Shown: positions 9,240 through 62,106 of the stretch, piece after piece
Numbering within the stretch: position 1 is the first letter of the stretch
How the letters are laid out: every line of letters starts with the position of its first letter
Assembly (NCBI GenBank): GCA_948465965.1
Contig: CAOJYR010000003.1
Span: 8,660 to 72,659 of the forward strand
Source of the DNA: an uncultured Mycoplasmatota bacterium
GTDB taxonomy: Bacteria > Bacillota_I > Bacilli_A > RF39 > UBA660
Length of the DNA: 64,000 nucleotides
Reading direction: 5' to 3'
The notes under the pieces: model-generated
The model's database searches: none
What the model saw: only the letters and a program-made list of their open reading frames with translations
Told to the model about the DNA's origin: nothing
Program-made: the position numbers and the translations under genes

Positions 9240-10070
9240 TTACCCAAGCATACTATATAGGCTTATAGCATCTTTTAATATTAGTGCAATAACTATATAG
9301 GCAATTAATATTACTGATAGAAAGCAAGCTGTATGATAATATATCTCATAATCTTTTTCTTCGAAGTTCACCTCTTCATTTACTTCTTTTGTAAAAATCA
9401 AAATTGAATAAATCAATCCAGCTATGCCTGTTAGTGTACCAAGTGGTGAATAGATAAGAGATAGAATAGGGCCTAATAGACTACCACATATAATGGCTGG
9501 AATCATAGATGTTGAAGTTATTCCTACTAATTTCATATAGTTTGCTTTCTTTTTAGCGATTAGATTTCCTATATAATAGATTCCTGCTATGGCAAAAATA
9601 GCTATTATAATAAAGATAAATGTTTTTAATGTTACATCTGTCCATTCAATATATTTTAATCTTGTAAAGTCTATCTCTACTTTATCAGTAAAATAACTTT
9701 TTTGGTATACTGTGTTAATTACTGTTTTTATTAAGTTTAATACCATTATTAATACTGAAGTTATTACTGAAAGTATAATTGCATTTTTTGGTACTTGTAG
9801 TTGCTCATGCTCTTTCTTATATGTTTTTATTGGCTTTAGAATGGTCTCTATCATAAATTTAAAATAGTTTAAATCAGAGTTATTGGTATTATTACTTATT
9901 ACTTGCTCTTGGTTTAGCCCTATGTTACTATTTACTACCTTTCCTGTAGTTATATTAGCATTCATATTGTTGTTCTCTACTGTTGATGGTGTATTCATTA
10001 ATGGATTTCCACATTTAATACAAAAATTAGTATTACTTCCATTTTCTTGTCCACATTTGTTACAAATCAT
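9240..10070 (-). CDS. Zinc-ribbon domain membrane protein (N-terminal CxxC...CxxC followed by a polytopic, Yip1-like membrane domain)
   Basis: MICNKCGQENGSNTNFCIKCGNPL zinc ribbon, then a linker, then four hydrophobic helices. Confidence 0.55.
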   Translation of the reverse strand: MICNKCGQENGSNTNFCIKCGNPLMNTPSTVENNNMNANITTGKVVNSNIGLNQEQVISNNTNNSDLNYFKFMIETILKPIKTYKKEHEQLQVPKNAIILSVITSVLIMVLNLIKTVINTVYQKSYFTDKVEIDFTRLKYIEWTDVTLKTFIFIIIAIFAIAGIYYIGNLIAKKKANYMKLVGITSTSMIPAIICGSLLGPILSLIYSPLGTLTGIAGLIYSILIFTKEVNEEVNFEEKDYEIYYHTACFLSVILIAYIVIALILKDAISLYSMLG

Positions 10071-33745: not shown

Positions 33746-33790
33746 GATTACACCTCCTCATTTAAATTATTATAAAAAAAAAGAAAACTT

Positions 33791-45454: not shown

Positions 45455-46930
45455 TTACTCTTTAATCTTTTTTTCTTTTTTATTATAGATAAAATAACTT
45501 ATTATTGAAACTATTACTACTATCAATATCATAGCAATAATTATTATAACCGAATTAGTTTCAGGATTTTTTATAATATTGTTTATAATTCCATCGTTAT
45601 TTGAATCATCATTCGTAATATGGTATTTAGTAACTGAATATTTCATATTTTCGTCATAAAATTGGGTTTGAAATGTAGCTTGACAGGTTCGATATAATTT
45701 TACTGGAGTATTTAAAGCAATTGCTATTACTTTATCATTTTCTTTGTAAAAGATTGCACGTCTTTGAACATTTTCAAATCCATTAATATTTCCTACAGTG
45801 TAAAATATATCTAAATTATTCTTTTTACTATCAGTCATATTTTCTGTATACTTATGAATTGATGAATTATAAATCATAGTTTCGTTAGTAGAATCTAGTG
45901 TATATAAGTAAACTTCATTATCAATATAATCTAGGTCTGAGGCTAGTGTATTTATATTCTTTTCAACTTTACCATCTTTGTTAATAAAAATTGTACTACT
46001 TCCTGATGCAATATATCCATTATTAACCTCAATAATTTTGTTTATACTCTCATAATTTGTACTGCCATTTTTTGAATATCCACTATATTTAACGTAATAA
46101 TCATAGCTAATTTTTGTTTTACTTGAATCTATATATTTAAAATCCTTATCAAATTTTACAACACTTAATGCATAATCATATTTATCTTCCGATGCGTATC
46201 CGTTATTTTGTGTATCACTATATTTATAGACAACCAAGCAAATAATATTATCATCTTTTGTTTTGTTGATTGCTATGATTCTTGCTTCATGATAAAAGGG
46301 ATGTGTACAAGCACTTATATTTGTATTTAAAACGTTTGTCAACAAATCATTCCCATTTAGATAGCTAACAAAATTACCTTTTTTATCTATTTTAGCAATG
46401 ATTTTTTGATTGACATAACCAATGTCAACCCCACTGTTATTGTAGTTGGATTGGGCATATACTCGCTGTTTGCTATATGGAAATAGTATACCATCAGATA
46501 ATTCTATAATATTTTCTGTATAAGCTGTAGTTACATTAGAATTACTTGAATCTTTTAGATAATCCTTTTGCCATACTATATTTCCATTAAAGTCATATTT
46601 TGTAACATTTGAAGGATATGAATGCCATATTAATAACCCATCGTCTAATGCTTGTATCCTTGTTCCAGTTATTTTGTCCTTTTGCCATACTATATTTCCA
46701 TTAAAATCATATTTTGTAATGCTTGATGCTATATCTGCATTAGAACCCTCTACTTGCATTACGACAAAACCATCTTTTTGCTTTATTATTTGTGTGTCTG
46801 TAGAATCATAAATATTTAGTTCTTTACTCCACTCCTTTTCTGCCTTTGCTTCTACTTTTATGGTAGATATTATCAAAAACGCTGATGCTATTAATACTAT
46901 AATTGCTAATCCTCTTATTTTCTTATTCAT
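45455..46930 (-). CDS. Class B sortase substrate. It has a signal peptide, PQQ-like beta-propeller repeats (KYDFNGNIVWQKD twice) and a C-terminal NPETN sorting signal followed by a TM helix and a KKEKK tail.
   Basis: C-terminus reads …IIKNPETNSVIIIIAMILIVVIVSIISYFIYNKKEKKIKE. An N-terminal signal peptide is present. It is a paralogue of the 49667..51133 gene. Confidence 0.65.
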   Translation of the reverse strand: MNKKIRGLAIIVLIASAFLIISTIKVEAKAEKEWSKELNIYDSTDTQIIKQKDGFVVMQVEGSNADIASSITKYDFNGNIVWQKDKITGTRIQALDDGLLIWHSYPSNVTKYDFNGNIVWQKDYLKDSSNSNVTTAYTENIIELSDGILFPYSKQRVYAQSNYNNSGVDIGYVNQKIIAKIDKKGNFVSYLNGNDLLTNVLNTNISACTHPFYHEARIIAINKTKDDNIICLVVYKYSDTQNNGYASEDKYDYALSVVKFDKDFKYIDSSKTKISYDYYVKYSGYSKNGSTNYESINKIIEVNNGYIASGSSTIFINKDGKVEKNINTLASDLDYIDNEVYLYTLDSTNETMIYNSSIHKYTENMTDSKKNNLDIFYTVGNINGFENVQRRAIFYKENDKVIAIALNTPVKLYRTCQATFQTQFYDENMKYSVTKYHITNDDSNNDGIINNIIKNPETNSVIIIIAMILIVVIVSIISYFIYNKKEKKIKE

Positions 46931-46959
46931 AACCTACTCCTTATTGTATATTTATTGTA

Positions 46960-46989
46960 ATTATACCCCCCCCCCCACGTTTTTGTCAA
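46960..46989 (-). promoter_or_regulatory. Promoter of the surface-protein gene. It is consensus TTGACA-18nt-TATAAT with an 11-nt poly-G tract (poly-C on the plus strand, 46966..46976) filling the spacer. A putative phase-variation switch.
   Basis: The minus strand reads TTGACAAAAACGTGGGGGGGGGGGTATAAT, then 26 nt, then AAGGAG, then ATG. The plus-strand copy of the hexamer (TTGTCA) may also serve as the -35 of the divergent GT gene. Confidence 0.6.
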
Positions 46990-47044
46990 TTCTTTATTTT
47001 TTTCTTTTTATATGATATATTTTGATTAATTTAAGAGGTGAATT

Positions 47045-48574
47045 ATGAAATTAATTAAATTTAAAAATGCATTAACTTATACATTTTATATAACATTTGC
47101 AATAACCTTTACTTATTTATTTGTTTGCACTTTTATATATAAGGTTTCTTATAGTTATAGTTTAAATATGTTTATTTGCTTTATTATTGGAATATTTATA
47201 TTATTATTGTGGTATTTTATTTATAAAGTTATTAATAAATTTTATGACAGACTATCTAGTAAACAACAATTTTTGTTGTTGTTGTTTACTTTTATATTTT
47301 TCTGCTTTCTTATACTAACAATTTTGATTTGGCTGAAGCTAACACCAGATTGGGATTATCGTATAATATATGAACAGGCAAAAAGCTATGCTCTTTATGG
47401 GGATAGAACACACACTACCACTTCTCCTTCTTATTTTCAATACTATAATAATAACATTGGTTTATTTTTAATATTAGCGGGAGTTTTTAAGGTATGTTCT
47501 TTTATAGGAATTAAAGACTTTCTTACAGTGGCGACCATATTAAATGCTCTATTGGTTGGTTTTAGTATCTTTCTTTTATACCTTTGTATTAAGAAATTAT
47601 CAAATAAAAAAAGTGCTTTTTTTTCATTAATAGTAAGCTTATTTTTTATTCCTTTATTTACTTACATTCCTATGTTTTATACTGATACATTTTCATTACC
47701 TTTTGTTATGCTACTATTTTATTTATATTTATCTATTGATAGCAAAAAATTATTATCTAAAAAAAATATTATATTGTTTGCTTCTATTTTATTTGTAGCC
47801 TTTTTAGGAAGTAAAATAAAGATGACTGTTCTTGTTGTTTTTATTGCTTGTTTTATTCATTTTATGTTTACTAGCAAACTTAAATATACATTACTTTTGT
47901 TATTAATTATTACTGCTTTTTTTTCATTTTCATCCGTTCTTTGGGAAAAACTAGTATATGAAAATAAAAGCTTTTCATTTATTCAAAATGAGTATGGGCA
48001 CGTTCCATCGTCTCACTTTTTAATGATGGGTGTGCAAAGAAAGGATGACGATTTGGCTGGAATAAACTGTTTAGGGTGCTATAATCATGATGATTTTAAT
48101 CAAACTTTATTTTATAAGAATAGCAAAGAAGGCGCTAAGGCTGATATTAAGGAATATATTACTAGAGTAAGAGAGTATGGATTTAGCGGATATTTTATTT
48201 ATTTAAGTAAAAAGGCAGTTAATGCTTGGGGAGAAGGAAGTTATTTTAGTAATGTTGTTTATAAATTAAACCTTGCTGAAAATAATATAGCTAAAAAACT
48301 TATTATAGGAGAAGATAATAAAATTATTTTATATTTTCAACAAGGCGTTAGTGAAGCCATGTTGCTTATATTTGGTTGCTATAGTTTTATTATGTTTTTT
48401 AAAAGAAAAAAAATGGACACATCTACAATTATTCTAATCTCTATTTATGGGATGTTTGTTTTACTCTTATTTTGGGAAAATCGATCTCGATATTTATATA
48501 ATTACATACCTATATTTATTACCTTAATAACTTTATTTTACTATAATATAAATAAATTTAAATTAAAAAAATAA
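47045..48574 (+). CDS. Putative GT-C superfamily membrane glycosyltransferase (PMT_2/ArnT-like), copy A
   Basis: About 12 TM helices. The first extracytoplasmic loop carries PDWDYRIIYEQA, an acidic DxD/E motif typical of GT-C enzymes. 509 aa. AAGAGGTG SD. About 75% identical to the 51256..52788 gene. Confidence 0.45.
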   Translation: MKLIKFKNALTYTFYITFAITFTYLFVCTFIYKVSYSYSLNMFICFIIGIFILLLWYFIYKVINKFYDRLSSKQQFLLLLFTFIFFCFLILTILIWLKLTPDWDYRIIYEQAKSYALYGDRTHTTTSPSYFQYYNNNIGLFLILAGVFKVCSFIGIKDFLTVATILNALLVGFSIFLLYLCIKKLSNKKSAFFSLIVSLFFIPLFTYIPMFYTDTFSLPFVMLLFYLYLSIDSKKLLSKKNIILFASILFVAFLGSKIKMTVLVVFIACFIHFMFTSKLKYTLLLLLIITAFFSFSSVLWEKLVYENKSFSFIQNEYGHVPSSHFLMMGVQRKDDDLAGINCLGCYNHDDFNQTLFYKNSKEGAKADIKEYITRVREYGFSGYFIYLSKKAVNAWGEGSYFSNVVYKLNLAENNIAKKLIIGEDNKIILYFQQGVSEAMLLIFGCYSFIMFFKRKKMDTSTIILISIYGMFVLLLFWENRSRYLYNYIPIFITLITLFYYNINKFKLKK

Positions 48575-48601
48575 AGGAATAAGATTGATAAAGGAAAGTT
48601 C

Positions 48602-48649
48602 AAAGATAAAGACCAGATGATGCCCATCTAGTCTTTTTAATTTATTAAT
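48602..48649. repeat. Copy 2 of the def-3'-end/terminator repeat. It acts as a bidirectional terminator between GT copy A and the sortase gene.
   Basis: aaagataaagaccagatgaTgcccatctagtctttttaatttattaat. It retains a degenerate def C-terminal reading frame (KDKDQMMPI*). Confidence 0.8.
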
Positions 48650-49629
48650 GCTGCGTGAACAACTAACCGACCTGTATTATTATCATTACAAGTTGATAGT
48701 GTTAATATATTAGTAGTATTTGAGATATCATAATTAAAGTCATATATTGTTCTGTTTTTTAAAGTCTTTATAAATTCTTTATAGTAATACTCTGAAGTAA
48801 ATTCATTTGCTAAATAATATGTTTCTGTTTGAACTTCATATATGGAAAAAATATTCCAATTATAAATTTTACTGCTTGTCTTTAAGTTGATTAAATGACT
48901 ACTATTTTCTTGCCATTCTTTTGTAAATAAATTGGAAATTGTTCCAAACATTGTTTTGTTTAATAGATGATGTCCATAAATAATACTATTTTTCTTTAAG
49001 TTTTCTAAATCATTTCTATAATCACCAAAAATGCTACCATTTTTATTATATGTTTTATTAAAAGAATGGTTTAAATAATACTCATTGTCAGTAGATTGAA
49101 CTATTGGGTAATTTATATTTGTTTTATCTACTCTAATCCACCCTACTATATCACTGTTTTCCTTTTTTAAATCCAATATATTTATTTCTTCAATAGGCAT
49201 ATTTTGATATTTTTCATATCCTTTTTGCTTTTCATTGTTGTTATATAAATCTTGGTCTTTGCTTTCTTTTTCTGTATTTTCTGTACTATTCTTATCCTTT
49301 TCTTCTGCTGTACCAACATTACTTTCAGGCGCTAATTTAGTTACCCTAAGTGGGGATGTGGGAATCACAAAGTTAATTATACATACAATTGTCACAACTG
49401 CTACTGCTACTATTAAGGTTATTTCTGTCTTGTTTTTTAGTGTTTCTATTACCTTATCTAGCTTAGAAAATTTTCTCTTTCCAAAAAGAAATGGGATAAA
49501 TATAATAATATTATATACTATATCCCAGCATAGATTAATGAAATAAGTAAATAAACTAGTAACAAAGGTTACATGTAAGTCAATTAAAAAGATTAATATT
49601 TTCTTTAAAGTATTTAACATTTTCATCAT
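48637..49629 (-). CDS. srtB: Class B sortase (SrtB) with an extended N-terminal membrane region
   Basis: Catalytic TLSTC motif (ILTLSTCNDNNTGRLVVHAALI), an upstream His (IYGHHL) and a conserved Arg in RLVVHA. About 330 aa. Confidence 0.7.
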   Translation of the reverse strand: MMKMLNTLKKILIFLIDLHVTFVTSLFTYFINLCWDIVYNIIIFIPFLFGKRKFSKLDKVIETLKNKTEITLIVAVAVVTIVCIINFVIPTSPLRVTKLAPESNVGTAEEKDKNSTENTEKESKDQDLYNNNEKQKGYEKYQNMPIEEINILDLKKENSDIVGWIRVDKTNINYPIVQSTDNEYYLNHSFNKTYNKNGSIFGDYRNDLENLKKNSIIYGHHLLNKTMFGTISNLFTKEWQENSSHLINLKTSSKIYNWNIFSIYEVQTETYYLANEFTSEYYYKEFIKTLKNRTIYDFNYDISNTTNILTLSTCNDNNTGRLVVHAALIN

Positions 49630-49666
49630 ACTATCTTTCCTTTATAGAATTAAACTTCTTGTAATT

Positions 49667-51133
49667 TTACTTTTCTTTTTTATGCTTTTTATTATAAAAA
49701 TAATAACTAAGTGCTGATACTCCAACTATTATTACTACAAACACAATAATCATTATAATAGAATCTGTTTCAGGATTTTTGATTATGTTTTCTATTATCC
49801 CATTATTACTTTCTTCTTCGTCTGTAATACGATACTTTGTAACTGAATATTTCATATCTTTATCATAGAATTGAGTTTGCAAAACAGAACTAGATCCACG
49901 TACTAATTTTACAGGTGTATTTAAAACAATCACATATACGTCTTCACCAGATTTATAAAATATTGCCCTTCTATATAATGATCCAAATCCTTTGGTATCT
50001 GCTGCTATATAAAATGTATCTAATTTATTACTCCTTTGTAGCTGCATATTTGATGTATATTTATGAATTGCAGAATTATAAACTAGTGTCTCATTTGTAG
50101 GCTCTATTGCATATAAATATATATTGTCATCAAGATAATGCATATCTGTTGATACCGTATTTATGCTTTTTTGCATTTTTCCTTCTTTATCTATATATAC
50201 TGTGGAGGCGCCCGAGGCTACATATCCGTCATTGATTTCTATAATATTATTGAATCCACCACTACTGTTATAGCTACTATATAATGCAAAATGAGCTTCG
50301 TCGATATCTTTCATTACTGTTTGTTGGTATTTCATATTCTTATCATACTTCACTATACCTAATGCATACTTGTAGTCATATGCAGGGTTTCCAAAAGATA
50401 ACCAACTATTACCTACATTATCGCTATAGGCAAATAATGTCAAAAATATTATGTCACCATCTTTTGATATGTTATACCCTGCAATTTTTGCATATCTGGT
50501 ATATGTACTTAAATTATCTGTCTTTGGCATAAATTTAAAAAACTGTGAATAATCAATTGTGTAAGAGGAGATAGAGCCATTTTTATATATTTTTAATGCG
50601 GCCATACTATGTGGATTTCCATTTCCATTATTTCCATTTCTATACATTATAGAGGATTGCTCCCACTTTATTATATATCCATCATCAACTTCTACGATAT
50701 TATCTGCAGTTACTCTTACTTCCTGTTTTCCATTCAATCCGCCATCAAAATCAGTTTCTTTGATCCATACAGCATTGCCATCTTTATCATATTTTGCAAT
50801 TCTAAATTTTCCTATATTGCCATTTCTCCATACAAGGAACCCATCTGATACTCCCTGTATCCTATTACCAAAGTTATTTTCTTTTTCCCATATTTTATTT
50901 CCATTAAAATCATACTTTGTAATGCGATTCTTTAAGTCTCTTACTGATCCTTCTATTTGGAATATTATAATACCATCCTCTACTTTAACTATTTCAGTTT
51001 CAGTAGAATCATAAATATCTAACTCCTTATTCCAAACCTTTTCTGCCTTTGCTTCTACCTTAATCGTTGGAATTAATAAAATTGCTAGAATTATTAATAG
51101 TATTAATTTTTTTGTTATTGCTTTATTCTTCAT
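49667..51133 (-). CDS. Class B sortase substrate, paralogue B. It has a signal peptide, PQQ-like beta-propeller repeats and a C-terminal NPETD sorting signal with a TM helix and a KKHKKEK tail. Probably co-transcribed with srtB.
   Basis: C-terminus reads …IIKNPETDSIIMIIVFVVIIVGVSALSYYFYNKKHKKEK. Its N-terminal 40 aa and C-terminal ~90 aa are nearly identical to the 45455..46930 protein, while the central region is diverged. Confidence 0.65.
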   Translation of the reverse strand: MKNKAITKKLILLIILAILLIPTIKVEAKAEKVWNKELDIYDSTETEIVKVEDGIIIFQIEGSVRDLKNRITKYDFNGNKIWEKENNFGNRIQGVSDGFLVWRNGNIGKFRIAKYDKDGNAVWIKETDFDGGLNGKQEVRVTADNIVEVDDGYIIKWEQSSIMYRNGNNGNGNPHSMAALKIYKNGSISSYTIDYSQFFKFMPKTDNLSTYTRYAKIAGYNISKDGDIIFLTLFAYSDNVGNSWLSFGNPAYDYKYALGIVKYDKNMKYQQTVMKDIDEAHFALYSSYNSSGGFNNIIEINDGYVASGASTVYIDKEGKMQKSINTVSTDMHYLDDNIYLYAIEPTNETLVYNSAIHKYTSNMQLQRSNKLDTFYIAADTKGFGSLYRRAIFYKSGEDVYVIVLNTPVKLVRGSSSVLQTQFYDKDMKYSVTKYRITDEEESNNGIIENIIKNPETDSIIMIIVFVVIIVGVSALSYYFYNKKHKKEK

Positions 51134-51255
51134 AATAAATGCTCCTTATCGTCTATTATATATCTACATTATCCTCTTTTAAAATCAATTTGTCAATTCT
51201 TTAATTTTATTTTTTTTTGTGATATATTGTGATTAGCATTTGGGAGTGATGTAAT

Positions 51256-52788
51256 TTGAGATTAGAGAAACTTAAAGGTATATTGATCTATATATTTTAC
51301 ATAGTATTTGCTATTACTTTTAGTTATATATTTGTAACTACATTTATATATAATGTTTCTTATAATTATAGTGTAAATAAGTTTACTTGTTTTATAGTTG
51401 GAATTTTTATATTTATAGTATGGTATTTTATTTATAAAGTTATTAATCAGTATTATGATAAATTATCTCCTAAGCAGGAATTTCTCTTATTATTATCTAC
51501 TTTTATTATCATTTCTTTAATTATATTAATGATTTTAACCACACTAAAATTAACTCCTAATTGGGATTATCATATAATATATGAGCAAGCAAAGAGTTAT
51601 GTTCTATATGGTGATAGGTATCATACGACAACATCCCCTTCCTACTTTCAATATTATAATAACAATATTGGTTTATTTTTGATATTGGTAATAATTTTTA
51701 AATTTTGTCACTTTATTGGTATTTCAGATTTTATCACTGTTATGACCATTATAAATGCCATCTTGGTAGGTATTAGTATATTACTTCTCTATCTTTGTGT
51801 TAGAAAATTACTCGATAAAAAGAAGGCATTTTTTTCATTAGTTATAAGCTTATTTTTTGTTCCATTATTTACATATATTCCTATGTTTTATACTGATACA
51901 TTTTCGTTGCCATTTGTGATGTTAGTACTTTATTTATACTTATGTATTGATAAAGACAAAATTTTTTCTAAAAGGAATATTGTATTATTCATCTTTCTTC
52001 TAATAATAGCCTTTTTAGGTAGTAGGATAAAGATGACCATTTTGGTTATTTTTATCGCCTGCATTATTCACTTTATTTTTACTAATAAAATTAAGTATAT
52101 ATTTTGCCTATTATTAATAACCTGTTTGTTTTTTTCTATCTCTTCATTCTTCTGGAAAACCTTAATATATGAAAATAAGGAATTTGATTTTATACAAAAT
52201 GATTATGGTAATGTACCTCTTACTCATTATTTAATGATGGGTGTTCAAAGAAAAGATGATGACTTATTAGATGTTAACTGCTTAGGTTGCTATAACCGCA
52301 ATGATTTTGCTTTAACGTTTTCTTATTATAATAGTAAAGAAGCATTTAATTATGATATGCAGGAATATTTGAGAAGAGTAAAAGAATATGGTATACTAGG
52401 TTACTTTAACTATCTTTCAAGAAAGGCAGTTAATGCCTGGGGTGAAGGAAGTTATTTTAGTGATTTCGTGTATCGTTATAACTACAATTCAACTTATAAT
52501 AATAGGTTTAGAAAACTAGTTATTGGTGACTCTAATAAAACTTTATTATATTTTGAACAAGGCGTTAGTGAAGCTACGTTACTTATATTTGGTTGTTATG
52601 GTTTTATTTTATTAGTTAGAAGAAAGAAAATAGATAAATCTACAATTATACCAATTTCCATATATGGAATGTTTATTGTACTTTTATTCTGGGAAAATCG
52701 ATCTAGATACTTATATAACTACATACCTATTTTTATTATATTAATCACATTATTTTATCATAATATTATTGAAAAAAAGTCAGTATGA
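51256..52788 (+). CDS. Putative GT-C superfamily membrane glycosyltransferase (PMT_2/ArnT-like), copy B, with a TTG start
   Basis: Same motif set as copy A (TPNWDYHIIYEQA). GGGAGTG SD before the TTG. Confidence 0.45.
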   Translation: MRLEKLKGILIYIFYIVFAITFSYIFVTTFIYNVSYNYSVNKFTCFIVGIFIFIVWYFIYKVINQYYDKLSPKQEFLLLLSTFIIISLIILMILTTLKLTPNWDYHIIYEQAKSYVLYGDRYHTTTSPSYFQYYNNNIGLFLILVIIFKFCHFIGISDFITVMTIINAILVGISILLLYLCVRKLLDKKKAFFSLVISLFFVPLFTYIPMFYTDTFSLPFVMLVLYLYLCIDKDKIFSKRNIVLFIFLLIIAFLGSRIKMTILVIFIACIIHFIFTNKIKYIFCLLLITCLFFSISSFFWKTLIYENKEFDFIQNDYGNVPLTHYLMMGVQRKDDDLLDVNCLGCYNRNDFALTFSYYNSKEAFNYDMQEYLRRVKEYGILGYFNYLSRKAVNAWGEGSYFSDFVYRYNYNSTYNNRFRKLVIGDSNKTLLYFEQGVSEATLLIFGCYGFILLVRRKKIDKSTIIPISIYGMFIVLLFWENRSRYLYNYIPIFIILITLFYHNIIEKKSV

Positions 52789-52808
52789 TAATCATGCTGA
52801 CTTTTTAT
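52771..52808. terminator. Bidirectional terminator between GT copy B and smc
   Basis: Near-perfect palindrome GTCAGTATGAT/ATCATGCTGAC flanked by A- and T-runs. Confidence 0.65.
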
Positions 52809-55759
52809 ACAATTTCTTTTCTTTCATCAAGTTTTACACTAACAAGTTTTGATACACCCGATTCTTGCATTGTAATACCATATAGAGTGTTTGCATATTC
52901 CATCGTTTTTTTCTTATGTGTAATGATTAAAAATTGCGTTTTATTTTTATAATGATCTAAATATTTTCCAAACTGGGAAACATTTGCTTCATCTAGGGCA
53001 GCTTCCACTTCATCAAATAGGCAGAATGGTACCGCTCTTACATTAAGAATTGCGAATAATAAACTGATTGCTGTTAGGGTTTTTTCTCCACCCGATAATA
53101 GTGATATTGTTGTTAATTTTTTACCTGGAGGGGATGCTACGATCTCAACTCCTGTTGTCAGTAAGTTGTCTGGATCGGTTAGTTTTAAATCAGAATTACC
53201 TCCACCAAATAACTCCTTAAAAACTGCTTTGAATTCTTTTTGGACTTTCTCAAATGTTATTTTAAATTCCTCTTTCATAACATCATCCATCTCATTCATA
53301 ATTTCTAATAGTGTATCTTCTGCTTTTAGAAGGTCTTCTCTTTGATTCGTTAGAAAGACATATCTTGCATTTACCTTTTCATATTCCTCAATAGCGGCTA
53401 AGTTTACCATACCAATTCGCTTGATATTTGCTCTATAGGTATTTACTTTTATTCTAGCTTCATCTGGATCAATATCTAATTTGTAATCTCTTTTGGCTTT
53501 CTCAAAAGTTAGCTCATATTCTTCACCCAAAGTATTTAGCATAGTATCAATCTTAACATCTAATCTATTTATTACTATTTCTTTTTCACGCGATGTTTTC
53601 TCTAAATTACGTAAAGTAGAGTTTTGTAATTTTGAAGAAGCTGTGCGTTTTTCTATTTTTTCTTTTAAGGCATTAATTTCTTCACTTAAATTAGAAATTT
53701 TATTAATAATAGATTCCTTTAAAGTATTTTTTTCATGATACAACTTAATTAGTTCTTGTTCTTTTTTATCTAATGAGTTGCTATTTATAGCCTCTAGACT
53801 CTCGTAATCTCTAGTTAGCTTATCGAGTCTTTCTTTTTGGTGCTTTAGCTCAGTATTTTTATTATCATACTTTTCTTTTAATGTAACCTTCCTTTTAGAA
53901 ATTAGAAACTCTTCTTCTTCTAATTTAGTAATTTCTACTCTAACGTCTGCTAGCTCATTATCAATTTCTAATTGTTCTTGTTTTAAAAGTTCTATTTTCT
54001 CTGTTATATGTTTTAAATCTTGTTTTAGGCTAATAATACTTTTTGTGTGATACGTTGATCCTCCGGACATTGAACCACCGACGTTAATCACATCACCATC
54101 TAATGTTACAATTTTATAACGACCTTTGATTAAGTGACTTAGCCTTGTTGCGCTATCAATATCAGGTGACACTACTACTGTTCCTAATTGATTTTCTATA
54201 ATATGTTTATATTTTTGATCATATGTTACTAAATCACTTAATACTCCTATAAAGTCACTACTCGATTTCATTATACTTAAAGTATTTGCGTCTACATATC
54301 TTTGTTTAATTATAGAAAGAGGAAAGAAAGTAGCTCTACCTAGATGGTTATCTTTTAAATAATTAATTGCTTTTTTGGCAGATAATTCATCTGTTGTAAT
54401 GATAAAGTTTTTATTCGATGCTATAGCAATATTTAATGCCTTCATAAATCTATCCTCGGTAGATAAAATATTACCAATCGTATTATGAATTCCTGTTAGG
54501 TTTGTTGACTTTAAAATGTTTCTAACGCTATTCGGTAAATCTCCTCCTGCTTCTATGTCTCTTTGTAAAGATTCCATTTTATGTTTTAGAGAGATAAGCT
54601 CTTTTTCATGTGAGGAGTAATCATTGTTTAACATATTCTTTTTGACTTTTAATTTATCAATTTTTTCTTCAACTTCTGTAGAATTTTTATCTTCCCTTTT
54701 AGCATTATCAACAATCACTTCTAACTCTTCTTTTAAAAGTTTTATACTTCCATCAAGTAATGATTTTTCCTCTAAACTCTTTCTTATTTCCTCTTTTAAT
54801 TCCTGTTCTTCTTTTGTTGTTTTACTTCGTTCTTCTAATAAGTTTCTTTCACCATTTATTCTTTCTACTTCAGCAGTGATATCTAATAACTTCTTATTTA
54901 ATTCTGCTTTTTCTTTTTCTTTCTTTTCTAAACTGTTATTGTCGTTTATCTCTTCTGCATCATTTTTAGAAGTTTCTGCTCCAATATTTAAAATCTCTTT
55001 ATCTAGTTTTTCTTTTTCTTTCGTTGCAGTTTCCAATTCGATATTAGCATTTTCAATATCATATGCTAACAAAGCAACTTCATAGGTATCTAAGCCTCTT
55101 TTGTTTTCTAAATAAACTTTTGCCTTTTCACTTTGCTCTTTTAGTGGCCCTACTTGAAGCTCTAACTCAGAAATAATATCATTTACGCGATCTATATTAT
55201 TATGTGTTCTATCCAGTTTTCTTAAAGCTTCTCCTTTTCTTTTTTTGTATTTCAATATTCCGGCTGCTTCTTCAAATATTACTCGCCTATCACTTGCTGA
55301 GTCACTAAGAATCTTTTCAACTTCTCCTTGGGAAATAATATTAAAGGATTCTTTCCCCATTCCAGAATCAATTAAAAGATTAGTTAAGTCTTTTAAACGA
55401 CATTTTTCGCCATTTAGGTAGTATTCATTTTCACCACTTCTATATACTCGTCTTTTAATAGAGATTTCTGTATAAGGAACATTTAAAAAGTGATCACTAT
55501 TATCAAATACTAATTCTACTGATGCGACATTTAAAGGATTTCTACTCTTACTTCCGGAAAATATTACATCACTCATAGAACCTTCTCCACGAAGGGATTT
55601 TACGGATTGTTCTCCCAATACCCATCTAACGGCATCAACAACATTGCTTTTACCTGAACCATTTGGTCCGACTATACAAGTCGTTTTATCGTCTAATTTG
55701 ATATTTAATTTATCCGCAAAAGATTTAAAACCACTTGCCTCAATTTCTTTTAAGTACAT
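52805..55759 (-). CDS. smc: Chromosome segregation protein SMC (984 aa, shorter coiled-coil arms than usual)
   Basis: N-terminal Walker A GPNGSGKSN, hinge GRATFFPLSIIK, C-terminal signature LSGGEKTLTAISLLFA and Walker B LFDEVEAALD. Start trimmed to MYLKEIEASGFKSF with a GGTGAAGAG SD. Confidence 0.85.
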   Translation of the reverse strand: MYLKEIEASGFKSFADKLNIKLDDKTTCIVGPNGSGKSNVVDAVRWVLGEQSVKSLRGEGSMSDVIFSGSKSRNPLNVASVELVFDNSDHFLNVPYTEISIKRRVYRSGENEYYLNGEKCRLKDLTNLLIDSGMGKESFNIISQGEVEKILSDSASDRRVIFEEAAGILKYKKRKGEALRKLDRTHNNIDRVNDIISELELQVGPLKEQSEKAKVYLENKRGLDTYEVALLAYDIENANIELETATKEKEKLDKEILNIGAETSKNDAEEINDNNSLEKKEKEKAELNKKLLDITAEVERINGERNLLEERSKTTKEEQELKEEIRKSLEEKSLLDGSIKLLKEELEVIVDNAKREDKNSTEVEEKIDKLKVKKNMLNNDYSSHEKELISLKHKMESLQRDIEAGGDLPNSVRNILKSTNLTGIHNTIGNILSTEDRFMKALNIAIASNKNFIITTDELSAKKAINYLKDNHLGRATFFPLSIIKQRYVDANTLSIMKSSSDFIGVLSDLVTYDQKYKHIIENQLGTVVVSPDIDSATRLSHLIKGRYKIVTLDGDVINVGGSMSGGSTYHTKSIISLKQDLKHITEKIELLKQEQLEIDNELADVRVEITKLEEEEFLISKRKVTLKEKYDNKNTELKHQKERLDKLTRDYESLEAINSNSLDKKEQELIKLYHEKNTLKESIINKISNLSEEINALKEKIEKRTASSKLQNSTLRNLEKTSREKEIVINRLDVKIDTMLNTLGEEYELTFEKAKRDYKLDIDPDEARIKVNTYRANIKRIGMVNLAAIEEYEKVNARYVFLTNQREDLLKAEDTLLEIMNEMDDVMKEEFKITFEKVQKEFKAVFKELFGGGNSDLKLTDPDNLLTTGVEIVASPPGKKLTTISLLSGGEKTLTAISLLFAILNVRAVPFCLFDEVEAALDEANVSQFGKYLDHYKNKTQFLIITHKKKTMEYANTLYGITMQESGVSKLVSVKLDERKEIV

Positions 55760-55917
55760 ACTCTTCACCATGTTAATTATACTATAAAATTCTTTTTCAA
55801 ACAACACTATCTTTTGATAGAAAAAGAAAAAAAGATATAAAATCCTCTACTATGTTATTGGTACCCTATTTTTTCTAAAATTATAGATATATAATTATAT
55901 ACTAGAATATAATCATT

Positions 55918-60711: not shown

Positions 60712-62106
60712 TCACTTGAAATTTTTCCATGTTTTTAATATATTACCATCTACTTGATAAATTCCTAATAAGTCGTTTTGATACTTAAAAATCACTTTAT
60801 CTTCTACATTAAAAGTGTTTTCTATCCTTACTCCATTTTTTACCTTGTGGGCTAGGCCTTCATTTAATTCAACTACTGGATAATCAAGAGACTCTTCTAT
60901 ACTAAGTAGACTATAATTATTATTTTTTATATCATTAAGAGTATAAGCATCGTTCAGTGAAAACTTGCCTTGCTTTGTTCTCGTTAGTTTAGTCATAGTC
61001 GCAAATGTATTTAGACTTTCTCCTATATCATTAATTAAACTTCTTATATAACAACCTTTAGATACTGTGGATTTAAACATGAATTCGTTTCTATCTGTAC
61101 TTAGAAGTTCTATTTCTTTAATGGTTACTTCTTTTTTTGGAAGTTCTACCTTTTCACCTTTCCTTGCGTATTCATATAACTTCTTTCCATTCACTTTTAC
61201 AGCTGAATAAATTGGTACTTCTTGAAGGTAAGTTTTTTTATAACTTTTTATAATTTCTTCTATATTTAAATTATCATATACTGGTTTGTTATCTATTACT
61301 TTTCCGGTTATATCTAGTGTATCTGTTTTAATACCTAAAAGTACTCCTGCAATATACTCTTTGTATGATGCGGTTAATAGTTCTGCTATTTTAGTAGCTT
61401 CTCCTATTGTTATAACAAGCACTCCTTCTGCTAGAGGATCAAGTGTTCCTGTATGTCCCACTTTTTTTATACCAAAGATATGACTGATTTCATTTACTAC
61501 ATCGCGGGAAGTCATATTTTTCTTCTTGTTTACGACTAATACTTTACTAAATTTATTTAAATATTCTTCTAGTGTCCATCCCTCTTTTTCTATGATTTTC
61601 GCTGGTATTTCTCCTACATATCTTATATGCCATGGCTCATATGGGTAACCTGTAATTTCTTCTTTTCCTTTGGGGTATCTTAAAATAAAGCCAAATTCTG
61701 ATAAATTTTTATGAATTTCTTTAAAAATCTTATCTTCCTTGATTAAATCTTTGTTATCGATTAAAAATTCACCATTTTTCTTTATACTAATGTCAATTGC
61801 AAGCCCTGTATGATGTTCACTTATCCCAACTGGTGCCACTACTTTATCTGCATAGTTTTTGCCATATTTTATAACAAAACTATCATATATTTCTTGTTGT
61901 TCTTCTAGGGTGCGATAACTAGAGTCAATTCCAATCTCTATATTTTTTGAAATTAAGTATTTTTTTAGGTCTAAATAGGCATTATAGGTCTTCTTTTCAA
62001 TTAATACTTTCTCATCGTCAATATCTAAAGTTTCTATTAATTCTACATACTTAAAGTAATTATTTTTGATTTTATGTTCTTTATTTACTAGTGTTAAATA
62101 GTTCAT
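60712..62106 (-). CDS. truB: Fusion protein with an N-terminal M15-family VanY-like D-Ala-D-Ala carboxypeptidase domain (no signal peptide) and a C-terminal tRNA pseudouridine(55) synthase TruB
   Basis: Residues 1-185 carry M15 motifs (SEHHTGLAIDI, EPWHIRYVG). Residues about 188-464 carry TruB motifs (VLVVNKKKNMTSRDVV and the catalytic-Asp motif GHTGTLDP). The frame is continuous with no internal stop, SD or ATG at the junction. Confidence 0.7.
   Translation of the reverse strand: MNYLTLVNKEHKIKNNYFKYVELIETLDIDDEKVLIEKKTYNAYLDLKKYLISKNIEIGIDSSYRTLEEQQEIYDSFVIKYGKNYADKVVAPVGISEHHTGLAIDISIKKNGEFLIDNKDLIKEDKIFKEIHKNLSEFGFILRYPKGKEEITGYPYEPWHIRYVGEIPAKIIEKEGWTLEEYLNKFSKVLVVNKKKNMTSRDVVNEISHIFGIKKVGHTGTLDPLAEGVLVITIGEATKIAELLTASYKEYIAGVLLGIKTDTLDITGKVIDNKPVYDNLNIEEIIKSYKKTYLQEVPIYSAVKVNGKKLYEYARKGEKVELPKKEVTIKEIELLSTDRNEFMFKSTVSKGCYIRSLINDIGESLNTFATMTKLTRTKQGKFSLNDAYTLNDIKNNNYSLLSIEESLDYPVVELNEGLAHKVKNGVRIENTFNVEDKVIFKYQNDLLGIYQVDGNILKTWKNFK

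Follow-up and report, generated by a model that had tools for sequence, protein, structure and literature searches.

The window, by which we mean the whole 64-kb stretch of DNA analysed here, carries two paralogous surface-protein genes and a class B sortase gene, at a locus between def and smc in a core chromosomal region whose genes lie almost all on the minus strand. The genes at this locus, together with the promoter of the second surface-protein gene, are listed below.

45455..46930, minus strand: the controlled gene, encoding a 491-aa secreted protein predicted to be a beta-propeller, with a C-terminal NPETN signal, hydrophobic segment and basic tail (translation, structure model)
47045..48574, plus strand: divergent gene for a multi-pass membrane protein, GT-C/PMT_2 glycosyltransferase-like (PMT_2 E = 1.8e-4, below the gathering score; TIGR03766 similarity far below cut-off)
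48637..49629, minus strand: class B sortase (165.5 bits on TIGR03064, whose cut-off is 153.75; Pfam Sortase domain)
49667..51133, minus strand: paralogous surface protein of 488 aa with an NPETD signal, 44-46% identical (translation, homology search)
51168..51196, minus strand: promoter of the paralogue, TTGACA-N17-GATAAT, without a homopolymer (promoter scan; AAAGAATTGACAAA is common to this and the tract promoter)
51256..52788, plus strand: second GT-C/PMT_2-like gene, divergent from the paralogue (PMT_2 32.8 bits against a cut-off of 26.1)

The 491-aa protein opens with a typical signal peptide (MNKKIRGLAIIVLIASAFLIISTIKVEA) and closes with NPETN, about 23 hydrophobic residues and then NKKEKKIKE. 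This combination of signal peptide, NPxTx motif, hydrophobic segment and basic tail, along with the proximity of the sortase gene at 48637-49629, makes the protein a predicted substrate of a class B sortase that is presumably anchored to the cell wall, and the sortase encoded at the locus is presumed to be the enzyme that anchors both the NPETN and the NPETD substrates. No curated family in Pfam or NCBIfam matches the protein. An AlphaFold model calculated from a six-member family alignment is all-beta (pLDDT 70, pTM 0.70), and the top 50 Foldseek matches in the PDB are mostly propellers or propeller-containing structures (3no2, PQQ-dependent dehydrogenases, NHL, WD40, BtuG and neuraminidase), with E values reaching down to 6e-8 and TM-scores that are modest (0.3-0.57); the model thus predicts a beta-propeller fold. 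An earlier note on this DNA, prepared from the letters and their translations, had called the product an NPETN-anchored beta-propeller protein, a description that agrees with the sorting motif, transmembrane segment and basic tail as well as with the propellers that the model matches. The divergent GT-C-like protein is a possible modifier of the surface protein, and its gene (47045-48574) contains four 8-nt A/T runs.

The promoter of the paralogue was also seen, at 51196..51168 within the stretch that the same note had given for it, as TTGACA-N17-GATAAT without a homopolymer, or in its fuller form AAAGAATTGACA-N17-GATAAT. Just upstream of its -35 hexamer lies a T9 run at 51210-51218 (A9 on the minus strand), which is the longest T run of the window and is equalled in length by an A9 at 33774-33782.

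Several other features of the window deserve a brief record. Across positions 1-64000, 44 of the 52 open reading frames (ORFs) of at least 120 aa are on the minus strand, and T runs of at least 6 outnumber A runs of at least 6 by 256 to 45. A 464-aa ORF on the minus strand at 60712-62106 joins a VanY D-Ala-D-Ala carboxypeptidase (residues 35-165) to a complete TruB pseudouridine synthase (209-398), which points to an unusual fusion or else to a pair of genes run together by a mechanical ORF caller. The SMC ORF (52805-55807, minus strand) is 1000 aa long with a GTG start and is matched by TIGR02168 (1181 positions) in three stretches, meaning either that the protein is shortened or that its start was miscalled. 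No Rfam family of structured RNA was found at gathering thresholds in the 64-kb window.

A G tract between consensus hexamers

Upstream of the 491-aa protein gene, the minus strand from 46989 to 46960 reads TTGACA-AAAACGT-G11-TATAAT, exactly as the earlier note had it, with two perfect hexamers and a spacer of 18 nt that was read directly from the sequence (on the plus strand, ATTATA at 46960-46965, C11 at 46966-46976, ACGTTTT at 46977-46983 and TGTCAA at 46984-46989). The elements of the region are as follows, all on the minus strand.

46990..47012, minus strand: A-rich stretch AAAAAGAAAAAAATAAAGAA, a putative UP-like element; not conserved in relatives
46984..46989, minus strand: -35 hexamer TTGACA, 6/6 consensus, identical in all promoters with an uninterrupted tract and in the one with an interrupted tract
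46977..46983, minus strand: non-repeat part of the spacer, AAAACGT, unchanged in 6 of 8 related promoters, with AAAAC(G) and AAAACGC in the others
46966..46976, minus strand: homopolymeric G11 (C11 on the plus strand), the proposed hypermutable element and sole G/C run of at least 6 in 64 kb
46960..46965, minus strand: -10 hexamer TATAAT, 6/6 consensus, 18 nt from the -35; in relatives TATACT, at the same place right after the tract
46937..46942, minus strand: AAGGAG ribosome-binding site, separated from the ATG by 6 nt

The promoter scan ranked this site first, as the only 12/12 consensus match between 44.5 and 52.9 kb, and TTGACA-N16-18-TATAAT occurs just once across the whole 64-kb window. 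The match of the hexamers by itself is not significant, because 0.21 occurrences are expected by chance in 64 kb and at least one is found in 19% of shuffles. The tract is another matter: in a window of 28.3% GC it is the only G/C run of at least 6, no other exceeding 5, and from the composition of the window about 1e-4 runs of at least 11 would be expected, so that the rarity that the note had ascribed to such a run in low-GC DNA is borne out and the G11 tract is highly non-random. It is uninterrupted and exceeds the length of about 8 nt or more at which slippage is expected, and it sits between a recognisable -35 and -10 that are, as far as sequence can tell, correctly placed upstream of the surface-protein gene, with 29 nt from the end of TATAAT to the ATG at 46930 and the ribosome-binding site in between. 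The start codon of the divergent GT-C gene (47045) is 69 nt from the tract, and the intergenic region measures 114 nt in all.

We also considered that the tract acts mainly on the GT-C gene, or on both genes, either through overlapping -35 hexamers or as sequence upstream of the GT-C promoter. The plus strand does read TTGTCA at 46983-46988, overlapping the minus-strand -35 (46989..46984) by 5 nt, and this hexamer pairs at 17 nt with TTTTAT (9 of 12 positions matching); moreover, both surface-protein genes of the window are divergent to a GT-C gene. The co-regulation through TTGTCA that had been suggested for the two genes nevertheless turned out to be weak, for the second position of its best partner, TTTTAT, is not the A that is invariant in a -10, and the tract falls outside the plus-strand spacer. 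A better candidate, TTTATT-17-TGaTATATT (extended -10 at 47013-47021), does without TTGTCA; the tract lies upstream of either plus-strand -35, and slippage therefore cannot change the plus-strand spacers; the promoter scan lists no plus-strand promoter in the intergenic region; and four of the related loci described below (L003, L004, L005 and L013) have the tract promoter and no divergent GT-C gene. We consider a role centred on the GT-C gene very unlikely. If both promoters are real, their back-to-back overlapping -35 hexamers could give rise to promoter interference.

Three other architectures were considered and set aside. For an invertible-promoter switch, only weak AT-rich inverted matches (70-88% complementarity) were found, none bracketing the promoter, and this is not such a switch because no inverted repeats flank it; nor was a recombinase gene seen among the neighbouring ORFs (44.9-55.8 kb). 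A long-spacer promoter of the MerR type is at odds with a spacer in which ACGT is the only dyad. If one run of 11-14 G folded into an intramolecular G-quadruplex, this would be a weak two-tetrad structure at most and would leave the promoter context unexplained.

The same promoter in related lineages

Homologues of the surface protein that are about 30% identical to those of the window were found in the MAG GCA_964319585.1 and in the ENA assemblies ERZ28573807 and ERZ27271110, and directly upstream of their genes stands the same promoter, TTGACAAAAAC(GT)-Gn-TATACT, with n = 12, 14, 13, 13, 13 and 13. Where an assembly is built from short reads, such counts are error-prone by +/-1.

Window: TTGACAAAAACGT-G11-TATAAT, spacer 18 nt
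L003:18: ...CGT-G12-TATACT, spacer 19 nt
L003:1593: G14, spacer 21 nt
L004:5916: G13, spacer 20 nt
L012:5934: G13, spacer 20 nt
L013:17: G13, spacer 20 nt
L005:5936: AAAAC-G13-TATACT, spacer 18 nt

A comparison of tract lengths among relatives was one of the checks that the note had proposed, and the outcome is that the tract is not invariant: it ranges from G11 to G14 at seven loci in four assemblies, within conserved promoter flanks. Beyond the promoter, identity to the window over the 40 nt on each side in the relatives drops to 20-53%, roughly the background level of AT-rich DNA. Across relatives, then, both hexamers and the spacer outside the repeat are conserved while the number of G's varies, and conserved flanks around a variable tract are, in sequence terms, the signature of a simple-sequence contingency promoter of the porA, fetA, tp0126 and vlp class. 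Contingency loci of Neisseria are recognised by the same pattern, fetA being an example (PMC5320596). These observations also bear on the notion that the resemblance to a promoter arose by chance and that transcription of the gene starts at some other site. The chance figures given above for a 12/12 match would allow this, but the hexamers are kept at the same gene-relative position across lineages whose flanks have fallen to background, the -35 context recurs in the paralogue, there with a 17-nt spacer, and no better candidate was seen on the minus strand of the 114-nt intergenic region; we regard coincidence as highly improbable.

Not every member of the family carries an uninterrupted tract. 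Upstream of position 2924 in L012 (2840-2875) the tract is interrupted, reading TTGACAAAAACGC-GGGGAGGGGGG-TACACT; its spacer is 18 nt long, and it has the look of a switch that has been locked or has decayed. This paralogue is separated from the next one by a DDE-transposase-associated gene. Upstream of position 9250 in the same contig is TTTACA-N17-TAAAAT, with no tract and a 17-nt spacer as in the window paralogue. Since the tract-less paralogues have 17 nt and the interrupted one 18 nt, a spacing of 17-18 nt looks like the functional, working frame of this promoter family. Other G runs of at least 7 were absent from the roughly 48 kb of six related loci (L002-L005, L012 and L013). The statement in the note that the tract is specific to this copy holds within the window, where the paralogue lacks it, and fails beyond it, since among relatives the tract is an ancestral, family-wide feature of the promoter.

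A third lineage, represented by a Logan contig (SRR29322153, L014), begins at positions 1-12 with GGGGGTATACT, in which TATACT comes directly after a G run. About 145 nt further downstream are two family genes in tandem, with NPETS signals, and then a gene for sortase B. It seems that assembly stopped within the poly-G tract of a promoter, and this break is the sole indirect hint that tract length may differ among the cells of one population. This contig and another related one (L008) end inside G runs, and poly-G artefacts, such as those of two-colour Illumina chemistry, are in general common at the ends of reads and contigs, which is the case to be made for G11 being an error of sequencing or assembly. 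However, the tract in the window is internal with unique sequence on both sides, and an artefact is excluded because four independent assemblies, with seven loci between them, have it at the corresponding place in the promoter, where only the count is uncertain by +/-1; the residual chance that we allow for it is minimal. Exact-protein look-ups with the surface protein, its paralogue, the GT-C protein and the deformylase returned no independent assembly of the same strain, and a search of genome contigs with the surface protein as query gave a single irrelevant locus. The sortase look-up returned one contig (L002; ENA ERZ14864794, NODE_51330; 1.7 kb, 2.9x coverage) that is 99.8% identical to window positions 48362-50092 and ends before the tract, placing the same species in that sample.

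The alternative to which we give the most weight is that the G tract is a fixed cis-element, either the site of a family-specific regulator or a tuner of promoter melting, and that its length differences are slow neutral drift. Conservation of AAAACGT is no less strict than that of the hexamers, something that a spacer-length model does not require, and G13 accounts for four of the seven tracts while none is at the nominal 17-nt optimum. Against these points, the lengths vary even among the paralogues of one MAG (spacers of 18, 19, 20 and 21 nt); runs of 11-14 G are, as a matter of general knowledge and to our knowledge in every bacterium examined, intrinsically unstable (compare PMC7864442 and PMC5320596); no regulator gene is consistently linked across the related loci; and the G's are not needed for promoter function, because the tract-less paralogues have ordinary 17-nt AT-rich spacers. 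We judge a fixed element to be unlikely and keep it under consideration because no tract stands at 17 nt, four are G13 and AAAACGT is as conserved as the hexamers.

Strings resembling this spacer also occur outside the family. The exact string TTGACAAAAACG(G/T)G8+ is present in six JGI metagenome contigs (L006-L011) representing five distinct loci with GC contents of 29-58%, all unrelated to the beta-propeller family, several of which show a -10-like hexamer behind the tract and, further downstream, a gene for a small protein that is secreted or in the membrane; by a rough and uncalibrated estimate, fewer than one such match would be expected by chance. A motif scan of viral contigs gave no matches. 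Two of these loci, L008 (4454-4481) and L011 (4873-4896), come from different samples and share an identical 200-nt upstream sequence, and after TTGACAAAAAC the first has G17 or more and the second G13, a between-sample difference in length in another organism, with the proviso that the G17 stands at a contig end and may be an artefact.

A family with exchangeable gene bodies

The 491-aa protein belongs to a small group. An index of 5.8 billion proteins yielded ten relatives, and an exhaustive profile search of 1.84 billion representatives yielded 28 cluster representatives at E <= 1e-30. At the C-terminus of all eleven family sequences that were retrieved is a sorting signal of the form NP(Q/E)T(N/S), the signals of the relatives being NPQTN, NPETD or NPETS, and sortase genes linked to family members are also found in L003 and L014. 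Identity among the paralogues of the sister lineage is very unevenly distributed along the protein.

First ~120 residues: 80-90% identity
Central ~350 residues: 16-40% identity
Sorting signal: 83% identity

Three loci were also compared: L013 and L004 are 97.6% identical over 6.2 kb of flanking sequence and have different gene bodies at that site, and the closest counterpart named for the L013 gene, at 93% identity, sits at a different locus of another assembly (L003), with the boundaries of exchange at the promoter and 5' end on one side and the sorting-signal region on the other. On this sequence evidence, whole gene bodies are swapped like cassettes between loci in the sister lineage, and conservation of the promoter within that lineage could partly reflect gene conversion among paralogues and not selection. 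One MAG alone contains at least 6 paralogues, with spacers of 17, 18, 18, 19, 20 and 21 nt. A predicted surface-exposed product with conserved ends and a hypervariable core is the kind that is usually under phase variation.

Now considering the promoter and the proteins together, a broader reading suggests itself, which we advance tentatively and as possible rather than probable: TTGACAAAAACGT-Gn-TATA(A/C)T would be a dedicated, family-wide switch cassette heading each sortase-B-anchored beta-propeller gene in an uncultured, spore-forming, Clostridia-like clade, and this, combined with the hypervariable cores and the exchange of gene bodies, would constitute a Gram-positive system of antigenic or receptor variation comparable to Mycoplasma vlp or Neisseria opa, in which AAAACGT would point to an additional sequence-specific factor.

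How the switch would work

For the element in the window itself, we think it probable from sequence and comparison that it is a sigma-A (sigma-70-type) promoter with a hypermutable poly-G in its spacer, acting as a slippage-driven phase-variation switch. The slipped-strand reading of the spacer that the earlier note had put forward as an inference is strengthened by the comparison, in which the promoter core is kept, the tract lengths differ and the tract-less paralogues have 17 nt. During replication, the G run would gain or lose single G's by slipped-strand mispairing, and each change would shift the distance between the -35 and the -10 by 1 bp and alter the contact of RNA polymerase with the two hexamers. 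A tract of G10 would give the optimal 17-nt spacer and full expression (ON), the assembled G11 with its 18 nt would give reduced expression, and G12 or longer, with spacers of at least 19 nt, would be essentially OFF. The outcome would be heritable, reversible and stochastic variation in the amount of surface protein among the cells of a clone, and in the wider family, where each paralogue would have its own copy of the switch, combinatorial variation of the surface. This account takes it that the promoter is active here, that the tract changes length within a population and that expression tracks spacer length, and we infer all three, the last with some indirect support from the 17-nt spacers of the tract-less paralogues.

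Two features of the data do not fall into place so readily. The nominal 17-nt optimum is reached by none of the seven uninterrupted tracts, whose spacers run from 18 to 21 nt and of which four of seven are G13, so that the populations sampled may have most copies OFF, or else the true optimum departs from the textbook figure; the helical geometry of poly(dG)-poly(dC) is unusual. Furthermore, a model based purely on spacer length does not account for AAAACGT being so strictly conserved.

Significance

The class of mechanism is already known, and its occurrence in Clostridia was not found in the literature searched: no simple-sequence promoter switch turned up there for this group, and the clostridial switches that did are DNA inversions. 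If confirmed, the switch would mean that sortase-anchored wall proteins of low-GC Gram-positives can come under simple-sequence contingency control, and it would delimit a small family of variable surface proteins with a beta-propeller fold, not characterised before, whose role is probably in interaction with a host, a phage or particles. There is a lesson for metagenomics as well, in that a switch of this kind breaks assemblies, with contigs stopping at or in the tract, and in that a consensus tract length masks heterogeneity in the population that could be read from existing read sets.

Comparison with known systems

Phase variation by slippage in a promoter spacer is textbook knowledge for Neisseria, Haemophilus, Treponema and Mycoplasma. 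Direct precedents by experiment exist for this geometry. Poly-G lies between the -35 and the -10 of Treponema pallidum tp0126, with an optimum of 17 nt (PMC7864442), and likewise in the promoter spacer of Neisseria meningitidis porA, with the same optimum (PMC7864442), while the gonococcal fetA spacer holds poly-C that ranges from C10 to C14 among strains (PMC5320596). Like the window, porA and fetA have a G/C tract (there about 9-14 nt) in the spacer of a promoter of sigma-70 type that drives a surface protein; its length differs among strains, and expression is maximal at a 17-nt spacer (PMC7864442, PMC5320596, and van der Ende 1995 as cited there). They differ in being single genes for Gram-negative outer-membrane proteins whose switching is experimentally proven, whereas the element described here is a candidate recognised by its sequence and belongs to a low-GC Gram-positive, Clostridia-like host, in which it forms the promoter of a multigene family of predicted sortase-B-anchored proteins.

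In T. pallidum, tp0126 together with tprE/G/J/L resembles the window family in having poly-G promoters for paralogous surface proteins, and the poly-G lengths there vary within and among isolates (PMC7864442), where in the window family the variation is among loci and assemblies. This organism is, by contrast, a spirochaete, and most of its tpr tracts lie upstream of the start site and not strictly in the spacer; its tracts are also shorter, with 7-12 G. Clostridioides difficile also has heritable ON/OFF control of surface and cell-envelope genes, at cwpV, flgB, cmrRST and pdcB (PMC9286219, PMC5386303, PMC4737114). Its switches are segments between inverted repeats that are flipped by recombinases, whereas the window promoter is without such repeats and slippage is proposed.

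Finally, the vlp genes of Mycoplasma hyorhinis are a multigene surface family with a conserved promoter and 5' region, a homopolymer in each spacer, independent switching and variable bodies. They share with the window family the spacer homopolymer carried by each gene, the variable gene bodies and the prospect of combinatorial mosaics, although their tract is poly-A, their products are lipoproteins and their size variation comes from coding repeats, whereas the window family has poly-G, predicted sortase substrates and diversity that lies in the propeller core and is generated by cassette exchange. By analogy, then, the family looks like a set of variable surface proteins with an individual switch for each gene, and its logic seems closest to that of Mycoplasma vlp.
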